DNA from: Tepidanaerobacteraceae bacterium
GTDB taxonomy: Bacteria > Bacillota > Thermosediminibacteria > Thermosediminibacterales > Tepidanaerobacteraceae
NCBI GenBank assembly: GCA_049658265.1
Contig: JBASOM010000021.1
Location: forward strand, 40,155 to 64,154
Direction: 5' to 3'
DNA: 24,000 nucleotides
Of the stretch, positions 8,307 to 20,860 are shown one piece after another (within the stretch, counting starts at the first letter, position 1; each line of letters begins with the position of its first letter). The notes beneath the pieces were generated by a model. It made no database searches, had not been told where the DNA came from, and was given only the letters and a program-made list of their open reading frames with translations. The position numbers and the translations under genes are program-made.

Positions 8307-8828
8307 TTATCCTCCTCTAGTTAAAAAGCCAACAACGAAACCTACTATAAATAAGAACAATAATATAAGTAAGTGCTTAAAGTATGTGGTTTTTTCATAA
8401 TTTATTATAGAGTACTCTACGGTCCTCAATCTTTGTTTTTCCATGTCAACTAAGATTAAACCGCTTGGACGGTACACCATGAAATATTCTAGCAATTGCC
8501 GCCGCGTATCTGCGTACTTGGGAGATGTTACTTTATCACCTGTTTTTACTTCAGCAACGTAAATTTTATTGCCTTTTTTCACAATCATATCAGCTTTGAC
8601 TGTTACTTTGTGAGCTTTATTATCAATAAATAATGTATACGATGATTCTTTTTGTAAATCAAGTATCTCAAAGCCATTATTCTCCATAAACTTTATGGCT
8701 TTATGTTCACCTCTTTTGGCCTTCTTCATTCTCTTTATTAGCTGCAGCTTTCTTATGTATTTAATAATATTTATTGTCAAAAAGATACCTATTATTGCAC
8801 CAAATATTAAATAATATATAATATCCAT
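8307..8828 (-). CDS. Membrane-flanked PD-(D/E)xK (NERD/YraN-like) nuclease-fold protein, function unknown
   Basis: One hydrophobic helix sits at each end (IIYYLIFGAIIGIFLTINII and LLILLFLFIVGFVVGFL). Between them is a soluble core of about 125 aa with the pattern RGEHKAIKFMENNGFEIL ... KADMIVKKGNKIYVAEVKTG, i.e. E...D...ExK. I place the start at ATG 8828 (GAAGGG 7 nt upstream). The track starts at GTG 8858. Confidence 0.5.
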   Translation of the reverse strand: MDIIYYLIFGAIIGIFLTINIIKYIRKLQLIKRMKKAKRGEHKAIKFMENNGFEILDLQKESSYTLFIDNKAHKVTVKADMIVKKGNKIYVAEVKTGDKVTSPKYADTRRQLLEYFMVYRPSGLILVDMEKQRLRTVEYSIINYEKTTYFKHLLILLFLFIVGFVVGFLTRGG

Positions 8829-8912
8829 TTTTAAACCCTTCAAGATCTTCAGTATCACTATGATAGCTTTTCCTCGCTATTGCTATATTTCTACAAAAAA
8901 ATAAAAATTCCT

Positions 8913-9716
8913 TTAAGTCAGTTCTAGATGCGATTTTTTTACAACTTCCTCTATTTTAACAGAGTGACCAATTAATGGGCTTTTCCTAAAATGTGATAGA
9001 TACTCAATGTTGCCCTTGGGGCCCTTTATCGGAGAAAAGGTGAGGTTATATATATGGAAATTGTTTTCCTTAGCATCATTGATGACTTTTTCAATGGCTT
9101 TTATGTGTAAATTATAGTCTCTCACAACTCCTTTTTTACCTACATCTTTTCTACCTACTTCAAATTGTGGCTTTATAAGTGTGATTAAGTCGCCATCTTC
9201 TTTCAGCAGTGTATAAAAAGGCTTGAATACTTTAGCAAGGGAAATGAATGACAAGTCAGCCGTAATAATATCCACCTTTTCGCCTATGTCTTCCAACGTC
9301 AAATACCTTACGTTTTTTCTTTCAAGTACAATTACTCTCGCATCCTCCCTCAGTTTGTACGCAAGCTGACCGTACCCCACATCCACAGCGTATATTCTTT
9401 TTGCGCCCCTTTGCAACATGCAGTCGGTAAAACCCCCGGTAGAAGCGCCTGCATCTAGTGCGATCTTATCTTTTACCTGTACATCAAATAGGTCAAGGGC
9501 TTTTTCTAGCTTCAACCCCCCTCTACTGACGTAGGGAATAGCTTTATTTTTAAGGACTATATGGCTGTCAACATCAACTGCCGTACCAGGCTTATCTATG
9601 ATTTGATTGTTAACCATGACATTGCCACACATTATTTCAGCTTTTGCTTTCTCCCGGCTTTCGATTATGCCTTTATTTACTAATAACATATCTAATCTTA
9701 TTTTGTTCTGGCTCAC
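8913..9716 (-). CDS. tlyA: TlyA-family rRNA (cytidine-2'-O)-methyltransferase (S4 + FtsJ domains)
   Basis: 267 aa. It has an S4-like N-terminus and the SAM-binding motif LDAGASTGGFTDCMLQRGAKRIYAVDVGYGQL. The start overlaps the upstream membrane-protein gene by 4 nt. Confidence 0.9.
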   Translation of the reverse strand: MSQNKIRLDMLLVNKGIIESREKAKAEIMCGNVMVNNQIIDKPGTAVDVDSHIVLKNKAIPYVSRGGLKLEKALDLFDVQVKDKIALDAGASTGGFTDCMLQRGAKRIYAVDVGYGQLAYKLREDARVIVLERKNVRYLTLEDIGEKVDIITADLSFISLAKVFKPFYTLLKEDGDLITLIKPQFEVGRKDVGKKGVVRDYNLHIKAIEKVINDAKENNFHIYNLTFSPIKGPKGNIEYLSHFRKSPLIGHSVKIEEVVKKSHLELT

Positions 9717-10348
9717 TGGCTTTCTCTCCTGCCGTTTCTTCTATTATTGTTGTTACTAGGTAATAGGTCAAGTTGTAAATTGTTCTTTAGTTTATACAAG
9801 AATAATCCAACACCGTAGACTACAGTTTTAGAGTTCTTTATTGCTATGCCCTTACCTAATGCTTTACCTCCGATGGTTAAGGTAGAAATAATACCGGTTA
9901 AAAGTATGCTAAAAATAATTACCTGATTTTGGCTAAAACCTGTTGCGGCAACTCTGACAACTATGGCTGCACCTGCTGCACCGCTTACAATACCACATAT
10001 GTCTCCCACAACGTCATTGCAAAAGTTTGAAACTATGTCAGCATTTCTAACGAGTCTGACTGCTTCCTTGCTTCCCGGAACCTTATCTGCCGCCATGGCG
10101 TGAAAAGGTGCTTCATTGGATGAAGTAACAGCTACTCCTATAATATCAAAGAAAACACCAATTATTATTATAAACAGCAATATGAACATCGAAATTATAA
10201 GATTAACTTGCTTTAATAAGATTTCCGAAATCGTACTAAAAAAAACGGAAAGCCCAAAAGCCAGAATAACGACCTTGTGTACCCAATTGGCTTTTGAACC
10301 TCCGTTATTTTTTTTATGCTTCCTCTTTTCTATATCAGAGTTCAACAA
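9713..10348 (-). CDS. oapA: Small basic-tailed integral membrane protein, candidate OLE-associated protein A (OapA)
   Basis: 211 aa, about four hydrophobic segments, with a basic N-terminus (KRKHKKNNGGSK) and a basic C-terminus (NNNNRRNGRRESQ). A DVVGD (DxxxD) motif lies at residues 112-116 (nt 10001-10015). The gene sits immediately 3' of the structured RNA. SD GGAGG is at 10357-10353, and the TTG start is at 10348 or 10345. The identification rests mainly on context. Confidence 0.65.
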   Translation of the reverse strand: MLNSDIEKRKHKKNNGGSKANWVHKVVILAFGLSVFFSTISEILLKQVNLIISMFILLFIIIIGVFFDIIGVAVTSSNEAPFHAMAADKVPGSKEAVRLVRNADIVSNFCNDVVGDICGIVSGAAGAAIVVRVAATGFSQNQVIIFSILLTGIISTLTIGGKALGKGIAIKNSKTVVYGVGLFLYKLKNNLQLDLLPSNNNNRRNGRRESQ

Positions 10349-10367
10349 AATACCTCCAGTTTCTTAA

Positions 10368-10970
10368 GGGAAACAGATGGTAATGGATGGGTTAATTTTG
10401 TGGCTTAGGTCTAGCAGGATTTCCCCAGCAGAAATCTATTCGTTGCCGAATAGACGGTTCCCCTTTAATTCTACTGCTGTTATGTCGCCAAAAACAGAGC
10501 TAGATTACCACTTAGTCCACACTGTAATCCCCTATCCATCTCCAATATTGGACCAGTCTAGGAGATTTCCTCACCAAAATCCTTCTCCTCCTAGCCTCTT
10601 TTGCAAAATGGATTTCAAAGGTAAAAAATTGATTTGTAATTGGCCAAATTACAAATCAACAAAAACCTTTTTCCGCCCATTTCACTCAAGGCAGGCTACA
10701 CTGCACCCAACCTTTCATCGAATGCAGGTTCACACCCTAAGCCATAGCCCTCAAGGAGTCCTATCAGGCCACGAACTTAGGTCTCCGCGGAAGTAGGGTC
10801 AACGCCTACATGCCTTTGTAGATCGCCCCATCTTCCTTACTCCCAGCACCAGCCCCCGACTGGGCGTCAGAAGCCAGCACTAGGAACTTCATCGATGTGC
10901 CCTTTGACGGATTTTTAGCCCCGCCCTCAGAGGAGGGATTTTGACTAGAATACTGTACCACCTGTTTCCC
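10368..10970 (-). ncRNA. ole: Large structured noncoding RNA, candidate OLE (ornate, large, extremophilic) RNA
   Basis: The element is 603 nt. It is bounded by a 13-bp helix: 5' GGGAAACAGGUGG (10970-10958) pairs with CCAUCUGUUUCCC 3' (10380-10368), with one G.U. It contains many nested helices, listed in the findings. It is richer in G+C than its flanks and has no ORF with an SD. The synteny ispA-[RNA]-4TM protein-tlyA-nadK-argR-recN matches the published OLE context, and the size matches the roughly 610 nt reported. I did not align it to the consensus. Confidence 0.8.
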
Positions 10971-10982
10971 TTGCTGAAAAAT

Positions 10983-11011
10983 ATTATAACACAAATACGA
11001 AACTGATTCAA
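10983..11011 (-). promoter_or_regulatory. Near-consensus sigma-A promoter driving the structured RNA (and probably oapA)
   Basis: The minus strand reads TTGAAT (11011-11006), a 17-nt spacer, then TGT-TATAAT (TG at 10991-10990, -10 at 10988-10983). It begins 18 nt after the ispA stop codon. The predicted start around 10976 is about 6 nt before the first base of the closing helix. Confidence 0.6.
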
Positions 11012-11028
11012 CGGAAGTGGAAAGTTGG

Positions 11029-11919
11029 TCAATAGCTACGGTTTACAATAAAATCTGTTAACTGTATAAAAAAGTCGCTGTTTTTAAAATGTGATATTAA
11101 TTTCTTGGCTTCCAAAGACAATTCGTTAATTATTTTTACACAACCAATATTACCGTACATACTAACAAAGGTGTTTTTCAAATTTTTAATATCACTGCCC
11201 ACAGGTTTGCCCAAAGTGTTTTCGTCACCTTTTTCATCTAACATATCATCGACGATTTGAAAAGCCAAGCCTATCTTTTCTCCAAAAAGCTCTATTATTT
11301 CCAGGTCTTCCTTAGATGCTCCAGCAAGTCGAGCCCCCGACCAGAGTGAAATCTTTATCAAATATCCCGTCTTATGATTGCTTATGTAATATAGGGTATC
11401 CCTGTCTATATTCTTTCCGGATGTTTCGATGTCAATCACTTGTCCACCAATCATTCCATATCCTCCGGCGGCCAGAGATACTTTTTCGATTACATCCAAG
11501 ACAGCTTTAAGACTGATACCAATGATTTTGCTGTTCATTGCTATTGTAGCAAAAGCATGTGTCAGTAGGGCGTCTCCAGCAAGTAGGGCTAATGCCTCAC
11601 CGTATACTTTGTGGCACGTGGGCTTTCCCCTGCGAAAATCATCATTATCCATAACAGGCAAGTCATCGTGAATCAGCGAATATGTATGTATCATTTCGAT
11701 GCCGCAAGCAGTTGGCATTACATTTTCATAAGACATCCCGAAGAGTTCTGCAGCTTTCATCACCATGATAGGTCTCAATCTCTTGCCACCCGATAAAGTG
11801 CTATAGTGCATTGCTTCAAAAAGTTGTGGGGGAAACTCATTTTTCTTTGGGAGAAACTTGACCATTTCTTCTTCTACTATCTTTCCTAAATGAACCAATT
11901 CTCTCGTAAAATTACTCAA
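11029..11919 (-). CDS. ispA: Farnesyl/geranyl diphosphate synthase (polyprenyl synthetase)
   Basis: 296 aa with both aspartate-rich motifs (LIHDDLPVMDNDDFRRG and FQIVDDMLD). The TTG start overlaps the xseB stop by 8 nt. Confidence 0.93.
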   Translation of the reverse strand: MSNFTRELVHLGKIVEEEMVKFLPKKNEFPPQLFEAMHYSTLSGGKRLRPIMVMKAAELFGMSYENVMPTACGIEMIHTYSLIHDDLPVMDNDDFRRGKPTCHKVYGEALALLAGDALLTHAFATIAMNSKIIGISLKAVLDVIEKVSLAAGGYGMIGGQVIDIETSGKNIDRDTLYYISNHKTGYLIKISLWSGARLAGASKEDLEIIELFGEKIGLAFQIVDDMLDEKGDENTLGKPVGSDIKNLKNTFVSMYGNIGCVKIINELSLEAKKLISHFKNSDFFIQLTDFIVNRSY

Positions 11920-15713: not shown

Positions 15714-16310
15714 CTATTTTGCCAAAACACTAATTCTATAAGTGGGTATGTCTAATAGTGTGGCTGTGGATTTAATAATCTTTTCTTTGATTTTTGATGA
15801 TGAGGCTCCATCGGCAATGATGAGTATCCCTTTTATTCTAGGGGCAGTTTTTTTTAAAACCATAGCCTCTTCCTCACCATTTTTTCTGAGCAGGACCATC
15901 TGTTGATTTCTTTGCTTTTCTACAATTGTCCTAACACCTCCTTCATTGTCTTTTTCCTCAGATGTTTTTTCGGTGTCAATAACATTAAATGCCGGTTCAA
16001 TCAATGTCTCATCCTCTAAGACAATCATCACATTAACATCACCTACGCCTTCTACTTGGCCCAACAATTCTGACAGTTGTTTTTCCAGCCTATTCTCATA
16101 AGACAGGTTTTCTATTGACTGACGGGGAATTTGTTGTAACTCTTTAGAGTCGTTTTTCGCGTGCTTGTAATTAGTATCGGAAAACATTTTGCTTAAGGAC
16201 ATCAGCAACAATCCCAATGTAAAAATAAAAATAAATTTGGAAACGACCTTGTTCTTGGGATTCTTTATCCATTCAAGAATCGACTTTATGTCTAGTTGTG
16301 ATTTCATCAA
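15714..16310 (-). CDS. spoIIIAG: Stage III sporulation protein AG
   Basis: 198 aa with an N-terminal TM segment and a C-terminal ring-forming domain (GVGDVNVMIVL...IKGILIIADGA). Position in the operon supports the call. Confidence 0.85.
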   Translation of the reverse strand: MMKSQLDIKSILEWIKNPKNKVVSKFIFIFTLGLLLMSLSKMFSDTNYKHAKNDSKELQQIPRQSIENLSYENRLEKQLSELLGQVEGVGDVNVMIVLEDETLIEPAFNVIDTEKTSEEKDNEGGVRTIVEKQRNQQMVLLRKNGEEEAMVLKKTAPRIKGILIIADGASSSKIKEKIIKSTATLLDIPTYRISVLAK

Positions 16311-20428: not shown

Positions 20429-20860
20429 TTATTCATTTTCTGCGTCATCAAATACAATTGTCGCTTTGCAATTTGGGCATTCTGCCTTGCCATCATCTAA
20501 AAAATCTTTGTCAATATATACTGTCTCACGGCAATTTGGACAATCTGCTTCTACAAAATCATCATCATCAAAATCAAACTCATCATCGTCGTAATCATCA
20601 AAGTCGTCGTATTCATCATAATCATCATCTTCATAATCCATGTCGTAAAAATCATCTTCCAGTTCTCCCAAATCTTCATCTATGCATTCTACGTATTCTT
20701 GTGTGTCATCTATTGTCATTTTAAGATCATTTATTGCATCAGCCATGTCATCCAAAATACTAATTATCTCAGATAGTACTCTTTTGACTTTTTCATCTTC
20801 TATTTCCAGGCCTTCTACAAGACCTTTAACATAAGATACCTTTAAGCTAATGTCATACAT
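20429..20860 (-). CDS. Hyper-acidic zinc-ribbon protein (resembles Clostridia proteins annotated as CD1247 N-terminal domain-containing)
   Basis: 143 aa. It has a helical N-terminal domain of about 50 aa. Residues 61-106 are 30/46 D/E plus 10 F/Y by my count. A C-terminal CPNC-x17-CPNC ribbon follows. The gene lies between efp and spoIIIAA. Confidence 0.6.
   Translation of the reverse strand: MYDISLKVSYVKGLVEGLEIEDEKVKRVLSEIISILDDMADAINDLKMTIDDTQEYVECIDEDLGELEDDFYDMDYEDDDYDEYDDFDDYDDDEFDFDDDDFVEADCPNCRETVYIDKDFLDDGKAECPNCKATIVFDDAENE

Follow-up and report, generated by a model that had tools for sequence, protein, structure and literature searches.

An intact, full-length-type OLE RNA gene next to oapA in a Tepidanaerobacteraceae bacterium

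OLE (ornate, large, extremophilic) RNA, a structured bacterial RNA of about 600 nt and some 25 helices, was first described in 2006, and a 2024 survey reportedly counted more than 2,800 copies. Here we describe a copy of this RNA in a Tepidanaerobacteraceae bacterium, on the minus strand of a 24,000-nucleotide (nt) stretch of contig JBASOM010000021.1 (GenBank assembly GCA_049658265.1, positions 40,155 to 64,154), which is called the window below and whose own numbering is used throughout. In Halalkalibacterium (Bacillus) halodurans, the literature describes OLE RNA as bound by OapA, OapB, OapC, and bS21, as lying at the membrane, perhaps passing through it via the P3 stem, and as required for cells to withstand alcohol, cold, excess Mg2+, and poor carbon sources. 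The contacts of the OLE dimer are the A-rich loops of P4, the kissing loops of P5.1 and P6.1, and the palindromic loop of P9 (P9-P9 kissing), OapA binds palindromes in or near P2 and P4a, and the P3 stem has been proposed to cross the membrane (PMC12265935). The OapB site consists of the P13 GNRA tetraloop and a bulge and adjoins P12.2 (PMC7936274), and full-length and variant OLE types have been distinguished (PMC11332333).

GOLLD, ROOL, and the raiA motif resemble OLE RNA in being large, highly structured, and conserved. To our knowledge, none of them has a dedicated membrane-protein partner or shares the gene neighborhood of OLE. One report (PMC12286853) describes GOLLD and ROOL, like OLE, as homo-oligomers in cryo-electron microscopy (cryo-EM). 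The protein OapA can be compared with the MpfA/CorB/CNNM transporters (PF01595 plus a CBS pair plus CorC) through a weak, recurrent match in the transmembrane domain, a comparison of the "works like" kind; unlike them, OapA is without CBS and CorC domains, and it has a DxxxD motif that CNNM domains lack. That motif is distinctive of OapA, which also lacks the conserved proline of CNNM domains; its predicted structure matches that of CorB, and the occurrence of MpfA anticorrelates with that of OLE (PMC11332333).

Compared with the OLE RNAs of H. halodurans, Clostridium acetobutylicum, and Clostridium botulinum (cryo-EM), the window copy has the same P1 to P9 and the same four-way-junction region (P12.2 to P14.1). 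It also has the same conserved loops, GNRA-capped P13 and P14.1, a proximal promoter-like site, oapA as the next gene, and the neighborhood running from xseA to recN. However, it differs from the characterized copies in its 16-bp P1, its short P8, the lack of dxs, the lack of a terminator between OLE and oapA, an extra 183-amino-acid (aa) membrane-anchored open reading frame (ORF) between tlyA and nadK, and two near-invariant positions beside P2. Overall, the class is already known, and the window copy is an ordinary member of it except for the long P1. As a clean specimen of the full-length type, from an anaerobe that is syntrophic and of the biogas type, it adds nothing categorically new for biology.

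Identity and intactness of the OLE RNA gene

The largest intergenic gap of the window, 680 bp (10349-11028), has ispA (11029-11919) on one side and a 211-aa ORF (9713-10348) on the other, within an otherwise tight minus-strand gene array in which the next largest gaps measure 372, 198, and 120 bp. An initial annotation, made from the letters and a list of ORFs, had singled out this gap of about 680 bp among gaps mostly under 120 bp and had proposed that it holds OLE RNA, naming a search with the Rfam OLE covariance model as the check. In an Rfam scan of the whole window, RF01071 (OLE) matched 10361-10977 on the minus strand with 531.3 bits (E value, 2.1e-153; gathering score, 50). The alignment spanned model positions 1 to 616 of 616 and was not truncated, and besides OLE no Rfam family exceeded its threshold anywhere in the window. 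The proposed identity was thus confirmed, and the accompanying statement that this is a described class rather than a novel one was correct.

The core of the RNA, bounded by P1, spans 607 nt (10366-10972). The G+C content of the OLE region was 46.7%, compared with 37.3% for the whole window and 37 to 39% for the flanking genes, and an earlier count of 35 G+C among the 60 positions of 10801-10860 proved exact. The minimum free energy (MFE) of the minus strand was -254.7 kcal/mol, with a z score of -12.8 relative to dinucleotide shuffles, versus a z score of -6.5 for the plus strand. Both this difference and the strand of the Rfam match agree with the earlier view, based on G.U pairs, that the minus strand is the transcribed one.

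Other OLE loci (at least 120) were collected from the genome collection by an exact conserved 19-mer, AAAGGGCACATCGATGAAG. The 90 complete copies among them and the window copy were aligned with MAFFT (91 sequences) in an alignment that is not structure-guided and undercounts the variable tips of P7 to P9. All but one of the 159 RF01071 consensus pairs are present in the window copy, and 149 of these 158 are canonical. Of the 220 columns with at least 95% conservation among the 90 other OLEs, the window copy keeps 218; the only departures at near-invariant columns are 10956 (G>A, just after P1) and 10553 (U>G, just after the 3' strand of P2). Four public contigs (one from ENA, one from NCBI assembly GCA_049656565.1, and two from JGI) match the window at 100% identity across OLE, and the exact NadK protein of the window is recorded in 567 blocks of the genome collection. 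Because the P13/OapB-site architecture and P7, P8, and P9 are all present, the copy is of the full-length type by the published criteria and not of variant type 1 or 2. We regard it as practically certain that 10361-10977 on the minus strand is an intact OLE RNA gene of the full-length type.

The nearest OLE among the matches listed was that of Tepidanaerobacter sp. GT38 (NZ_JAFFJA010000059.1, locus L042), which is 94% identical over the OLE. The GT38 locus is like the window in its order (xseB-ispA-OLE-oapA-tlyA-orf183-nadK), in the lack of dxs, and in the G>A change after P1, whereas its P1 is interrupted (11 + 6 bp) and that of the window is an uninterrupted 16 bp. This nearest locus belongs to the Clostridia (Thermosediminibacterales), and the host fits the anaerobic or extremophilic Bacillota in which OLE RNA is found; the sporulation genes spo0A, spoIVB, spoIIM, and spoIIIAA to spoIIIAH are present in the window. 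The source is probably a Tepidanaerobacter, a spore former.

The G>A change at 10956 is common to L042 and two further loci (L054 and L062), and the U>G change at 10553 is unique to the window among the aligned OLEs. In most species, these two columns would give a G.U pair that lengthens P2 by one; L042, L054, and L062 would have A-U there instead, and the window has A.G. Two of the collected matches carry labels outside the Bacillota. In L034 (Streptomyces sp.), the 19-mer matches and the upstream flank looks unrelated to OLE, so this is likely a chance match. L079, labeled Succinivibrio sp., carries a full OLE that aligns with the others, which suggests misbinning or horizontal transfer, as noted in the literature for the rare OLE matches outside the Bacillota.

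Secondary structure, terminal stem, and expression signals

When the Rfam consensus plus P1 was applied to the 91 OLEs, 83.1% of cells were paired, compared with 70.3% in column shuffles. The covariation score was 0.419 versus 0.191 in the shuffles, none of 500 shuffles reached the observed value, and sliding the 3' partners by 1 to 3 columns lowered the score to 0.09 to 0.17. The Rfam model leaves approximately the first 50 and the last 20 nt unpaired, where the published model has P1, P2, and P3, and we located these stems in the window. The names P1, P2, and P3/P3.1 were assigned to the window by us from the published model, and the names of the domain 2 helices, except P12.2 to P14.1, are inferred. 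P2 was paired in all 91 sequences and invariant, and, since it never varies, it is beyond the reach of covariation testing. P3 and P3.1 together showed a covariation score of 0.378 versus 0.164 in the shuffles (0 of 500 reached the observed value); P3 was 95% paired, and all 6 of its pairs showed changes in both strands. In domain 2, helices 21 to 26 were 80 to 99.6% paired across the family, with many both-side changes. The dimer-loop motifs CUAAAAAU, CGCCCAG (the P5.1 loop, 10866-10860), CAAAGGCAUG, and UUGGCCAA were found at the expected places in the window OLE. The coordinates of all helices are given in Table 1.

Ten helices had been listed in the initial annotation, and all 10 are complementary exactly as written. 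The one said to close the element, given as 13 bp (12 Watson-Crick pairs and one G.U), is the published P1, which covaries and is really 16 bp long. Three of the nine others are in the Rfam consensus, namely, 10822-10817/10810-10805 (P6.1), 10659-10647/10641-10629 (the distal part of P9), and 10455-10447/10442-10434 (P14.1). The remaining six do not belong to the conserved OLE fold: their covariation score in the 91 OLEs was 0.109 versus 0.106 when shuffled, with 111 of 500 shuffles reaching it, each of them uses bases that are paired otherwise in the Rfam consensus, and at least four compete with covarying helices (P3, P7, P13, and P14).

The six helices rejected as conserved structure were 10937/10924, 10799/10734, 10786/10755, 10594/10558, 10530/10502, and 10479/10426. 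The helices 10937/10924 and 10594/10558 occupy strands of P3, 10799/10734 and 10786/10755 cut across P6 and P7, and 10479/10426 is a register-shifted P14 that takes three P13 bases and is enabled by a CAGCAG repeat. The helix 10530-10524/10508-10502 (GGAUUAC/GUAAUCU) was 94% paired across species and would cross a covarying long-range helix; because both of its strands are nearly invariant, covariation speaks neither for nor against it as a tertiary or alternative pairing.

The terminal stem P1 is absent from the Rfam model and present in the published one. In the window, it consists of 16 contiguous pairs (10972-10957 with 10381-10366), the longest among the matches listed: in the 78 OLEs for which both flanks could be anchored, the median contiguous P1 was 9 bp and the next longest was 12 bp. 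Flanks taken from the same genome paired better than flanks taken across genomes (8.7 versus 5.8 bp; -16.7 versus -11.3 kcal/mol). The inner pairs, approximately nine, covary (an example pair was GC in 42, AU in 38, GU in 8, and other in 2), and the positions of the outer seven window pairs are unpaired in most other species. The P1 of GT38 has 11 bp, a small internal loop, and then 6 bp (UUCAAC/GUUGAA), versus 16 uninterrupted pairs ending in AAGGG/CCCUU in the window. As the outer parts differ in sequence and both pair, the long P1 seems to be maintained in the lineage, judging from this one comparison.

P1 thus seems to have been lengthened in the Tepidanaerobacter lineage from approximately 9 to 16 or 17 bp, and we read the long stem as a stabilizing clamp, which might also mark a processing site. 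It is conceivable that this length is a selected feature, although we consider this suggestion more apt to be wrong than right. A clamp would guard the two RNA ends in a host that is moderately thermophilic; starting within a few nucleotides of the inferred transcription start, the stem would enclose the 5' end of the primary transcript, and it stops 8 nt before the oapA ribosome-binding site. Alternatively, P1 could be an RNase III-like double-stranded processing site at which OLE is cut out of an ole-oapA cotranscript, and, if so, the amounts of OLE RNA and OapA protein would be coupled. The long P1 and the terminator-less oapA junction could help in studying OLE end formation and the coupling of RNA and protein levels.

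The promoter-like site directly upstream of OLE is of the sigma-70 type; it matches the consensus at 10 of 12 positions, has the TG extension, and ends 11 nt before P1. From the spacing to the -10 box, transcription would start near 10976, 4 nt before P1, and a TATAAT-like box is found at a similar distance in most other OLE loci. In B. halodurans, the equivalent promoter is functional and increases the expression of OLE by a factor of more than 100, the 5' ends lie near the start of P1, and the RNA is abundant, gives a single Northern band, and has a half-life of about 3 h (PMC3413148). On the 3' side, the P1 arm ends at 10366, 8 nt before the oapA Shine-Dalgarno sequence (GGAGG, 10357-10353), and no terminator-like site was found on the minus strand in 9600-11200, hence none between OLE and oapA. 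Some other species, among them those of loci L002, L005, and L027, clearly carry an intrinsic terminator directly behind P1. These came from a crude terminator scan of the 150 nt past P1 in the 91 loci, which gave 26 hits, many inside oapA, and is usable for clear cases only.

Table 1. Positions of the OLE RNA gene, its helices, and adjoining features in the window
Feature	Position	Strand	Description
Promoter-like site	10983-11011	minus	-35 TTGAAT (11011-11006), 17-nt spacer, TG-extended -10 TATAAT (10988-10983)
OLE RNA gene	10361-10977	minus	RF01071 match
P1 5' arm	10957-10972	minus	AAGGGAAACAGGUGGU
P2 5' strand	10945-10955	minus	CAGU-AUU-CUAG with CUAG palindrome; partner 10554-10561, CUAGACUG
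P3.1 and P3 5' strands	10930-10943	minus	P3.1, CAAAAUCC; P3, CUCCUC
P3.1 partner	10575-10582		GGAUUUUG; 14 bp together with P3
P3 partner	10585-10590		GAGGAG
P4 hairpin	10906-10925	minus	99.3% paired; A-rich loop CUAAAAAU at 10918-10911
P5/P5.1	10840-10886	minus	20 bp, 97.3% paired, 12 pairs with both-side changes
P6 with P6.1	10789-10836	minus	P6.1 at 10821-10806, loop AAGGCA
P7	10736-10781	minus	17 bp; also in the MFE fold
P8	10701-10727	minus	Short version, 13 model pairs, 2 central ones noncanonical
P9 composite arm	10594-10692	minus	5 + 10 + 5 + 15 bp; palindromic loop UUGGCCAA at 10647-10640
Domain 2, 3' part	10382-10552	minus	Small hairpin 10552-10541 and long-range helices
Domain 2 long-range helix	10540-10530/10391-10382
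Domain 2 long-range helix	10521-10517/10403-10399
P12.2 (domain 2 long-range helix)	10504-10499/10415-10410
P13	10497-10477	minus	Bulged U and GCGA tetraloop 10488-10485 (OapB-site architecture)
P14	10476-10469/10433-10426	minus
P14.1	10455-10434	minus	GCAA tetraloop
P1 3' arm	10366-10381	minus	ACCAUCUGUUUCCCUU
oapA	9713-10348	minus	About 210 aa (211-aa ORF), tandem TTG starts 10348 and 10345
Spurious ORF, 139 aa	10377-10796	plus	Antisense to OLE, no Pfam match
62-aa ORF	10806-10994	minus	No Pfam match at E ≤ 1

Proposed mechanism and alternative explanations

The gene downstream of OLE is identified as oapA by homology and conserved position, as the initial annotation had suggested for what it described as a protein with four transmembrane segments. 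Its product has four hydrophobic segments (roughly residues 22-47, 40-79, 112-139, and 141-163), and a homologue of OapA was found just downstream on the OLE strand in 103 of 103 judgeable other loci among the matches listed. The DxxxD motif reads D111-V-V-G-D115 within NDVVGD, and N110, D111, V112, G114, and D115 do not vary among 71 orthologues. PF01595 matched 49 of these 71 orthologues at an E value of ≤0.01 (best, 9.3e-9), and no other Pfam family recurred. On these scores, OapA appears to be a distant relative of the CNNM/DUF21 domain and not a strict member.

The mechanism that we favor, with slightly less than an even chance of being right, is that OLE forms the RNA subunit, with regulatory and scaffold roles, of a cation-transport particle built on OapA. 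OapA would be a stripped-down CNNM/CorB-type divalent-cation transporter and the protein core of the membrane particle, and OLE would supply the sensing and partner docking that the CBS and CorC domains perform in the all-protein MpfA. OLE would thereby adjust how the cell handles Mg2+ and how well it withstands alcohol, cold, and poor carbon sources. Going by published work on the OLEs of H. halodurans and two Clostridium species, transcription of the window OLE would begin at a promoter of its own and would also run in from xseA-xseB-ispA. As in published OLEs, P1 would close the 5' and 3' ends, and two copies would dimerize via the A-rich P4 loops, the kissing loops of P5.1 and P6.1, and the palindromic P9 loops. 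OapA dimers on CUAG palindromes near P2 and P4a would hold the RNA at the membrane, which P3/P3.1 (14 bp) has been proposed to cross.

Nothing speaks against the identification as OLE, but the account given here has its limits. The regulatory-subunit mechanism is a published hypothesis rather than a result. The window OapA scored 24.2 bits against the CNNM family PF01595, under the Pfam threshold of 28.4, and a profile of the 71 OapA orthologues had no match among all PDB sequences even at an E value of ≤10, so that the link to CNNM/CorB proteins rests on the Pfam scores and the literature. Additionally, the OLE homologues, obtained with an exact 19-mer (at least 120 loci), are a biased sample. 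The promoter-like site is a consensus match only, the five such sites in the scanned region being no excess over the 3.7 expected from shuffles, and dxs, which is common in OLE clusters, is absent from the window.

Other explanations of the gap concern its identity. It could encode a protein, with the RNA structure incidental, and both the 139-aa plus-strand ORF and the 62-aa minus-strand ORF do exist. Gene callers annotated the 139-aa ORF in three of the four identical contigs, L121, L123, and L124 (510-929), and made a 51-aa call in the OLE region of L122 instead. The translation of the 139-aa ORF also had tblastn matches in other OLE loci, but conserved DNA always yields translated matches, so this search is uninformative as a coding test. 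In line with the initial annotation, which had found no credible ORF in the gap, neither frame has a Pfam match at an E value of ≤1. Moreover, just 14 of the 90 other OLEs have an antisense frame that stays open for 120 aa or more (median, 83.5 aa), and the 30 substitutions between the window and L042 fall 8, 9, and 13 times on codon positions 1, 2, and 3, with no clear third-position excess. In contrast, conservation tracks base-paired columns with compensatory changes, and the Rfam match is full length. The chance that the gap is protein coding is therefore next to nil. The other alternative, that the locus is a relic, a decaying nonfunctional copy derived from OLE, would fit the missing dxs, the short P8 with its two noncanonical central pairs, and the changes at the two near-invariant positions (10956 G>A and 10553 U>G). 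However, decay would hardly have left 218 of the 220 conserved columns and 149 of the 158 consensus pairs in place. The promoter-like site, the loops for dimerization, and the architecture of the OapB site are present as well, as is an oapA that is intact and has the invariant DxxxD; the sequence is 100% identical in four independent assemblies, and, at 94% identity to another species, the differences in P1 preserve pairing. We consider a relic extremely improbable.

Two further explanations accept OLE RNA and are alternative mechanisms rather than identities. The discoverers of OLE argue that RNAs this large, complex, and conserved are usually ribozymes (PMC12265935; PMC11332333), in which case its size and conservation would serve catalysis of some reaction at the membrane and not regulation or scaffolding of OapA; about a third of the columns (220) are at least 95% conserved, many of them in joining regions and not in helices. 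We hold this to be unlikely, since B. halodurans showed no products of self-cleavage or splicing (PMC3413148), many of the conserved loops are explained by dimer contacts and protein sites, and the MpfA anticorrelation and an unpublished cross-rescue cited in a review point to a transporter-linked role; nothing in the window has a bearing on catalysis. OLE might also act mainly in cis here: as a structured leader of giant size, it would govern how oapA is translated or how stable its mRNA is. With no terminator-like site between the two and with the 3' arm of P1 8 nt before the oapA Shine-Dalgarno sequence, the message from the proximal promoter would carry the whole OLE as its 5' leader. In L002, L005, and L027, however, a terminator follows directly after P1, so the function of the family would not need cotranscription. 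The B. halodurans OLE, moreover, gives a single Northern band, is abundant and very stable, and binds OapA, and 600 nt with 220 conserved columns far exceed the needs of a leader, all of which makes a role mainly in cis quite improbable.

The candidate rejected along with the protein-coding explanation was the 139-aa ORF, which as a gene is effectively refuted by the lack of a Pfam match, a frame that is mostly not kept, and the lack of a clear codon-position signal. For annotation, the 680-bp gap holds a real RNA gene, which should read OLE RNA, and the downstream gene should read oapA; the hypothetical protein of 139 aa that public records list opposite OLE is spurious.

Gene neighborhood and other features of the window

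On the minus strand, the genes follow in the order pfk, M24 peptidase gene, efp, 143-aa ORF, spoIIIAA to spoIIIAH, two asp23 genes, DUF2273 gene, nusB, xseA, xseB, ispA, OLE, oapA, tlyA, 183-aa ORF, nadK, argR, recN, spoIVB, spo0A, NUDIX gene, PHP/HhH protein gene, and spoIIM. The OLE neighborhood named in the initial annotation was thus recovered in xseA, xseB, ispA, tlyA, nadK, argR, and recN but not in dxs, which had also been named. The usual place of dxs in OLE clusters is between oapA and tlyA. In the window, oapA and tlyA overlap by 4 nt (9713-9716), as they do in the GT38 locus, which has no dxs either; in at least one other locus, L077, dxs is likewise missing and tlyA directly follows oapA. 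The genes for OapB and OapC are located outside the window.

The second-largest gap (2507-2878, 372 bp), flanked by spo0A and the NUDIX gene, contains one weak promoter-like site; it had no Rfam match at an E value of ≤1 and no terminator-like site, and none of its ORFs exceeds 54 aa. The 143-aa ORF beside efp (20429-20860, minus strand) has no Pfam family and shows faint zinc-ribbon-like matches at its C terminus, and a 198-aa ORF in the spoIIIAG position of the spoIIIA operon (15714-16310, minus strand) also has no Pfam family. The 183-aa ORF between tlyA and nadK (orf183; 8307-8858, minus strand) is hydrophobic at both ends, and its middle part gave only subthreshold matches to PD-(D/E)XK-type families (Cas4, YraN/UPF0102, NERD, and PDDEXK_1). 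It occurs at the same position in Tepidanaerobacter sp. GT38, with 72% identity, and weaker homologues were found in L106, L024, and L009.

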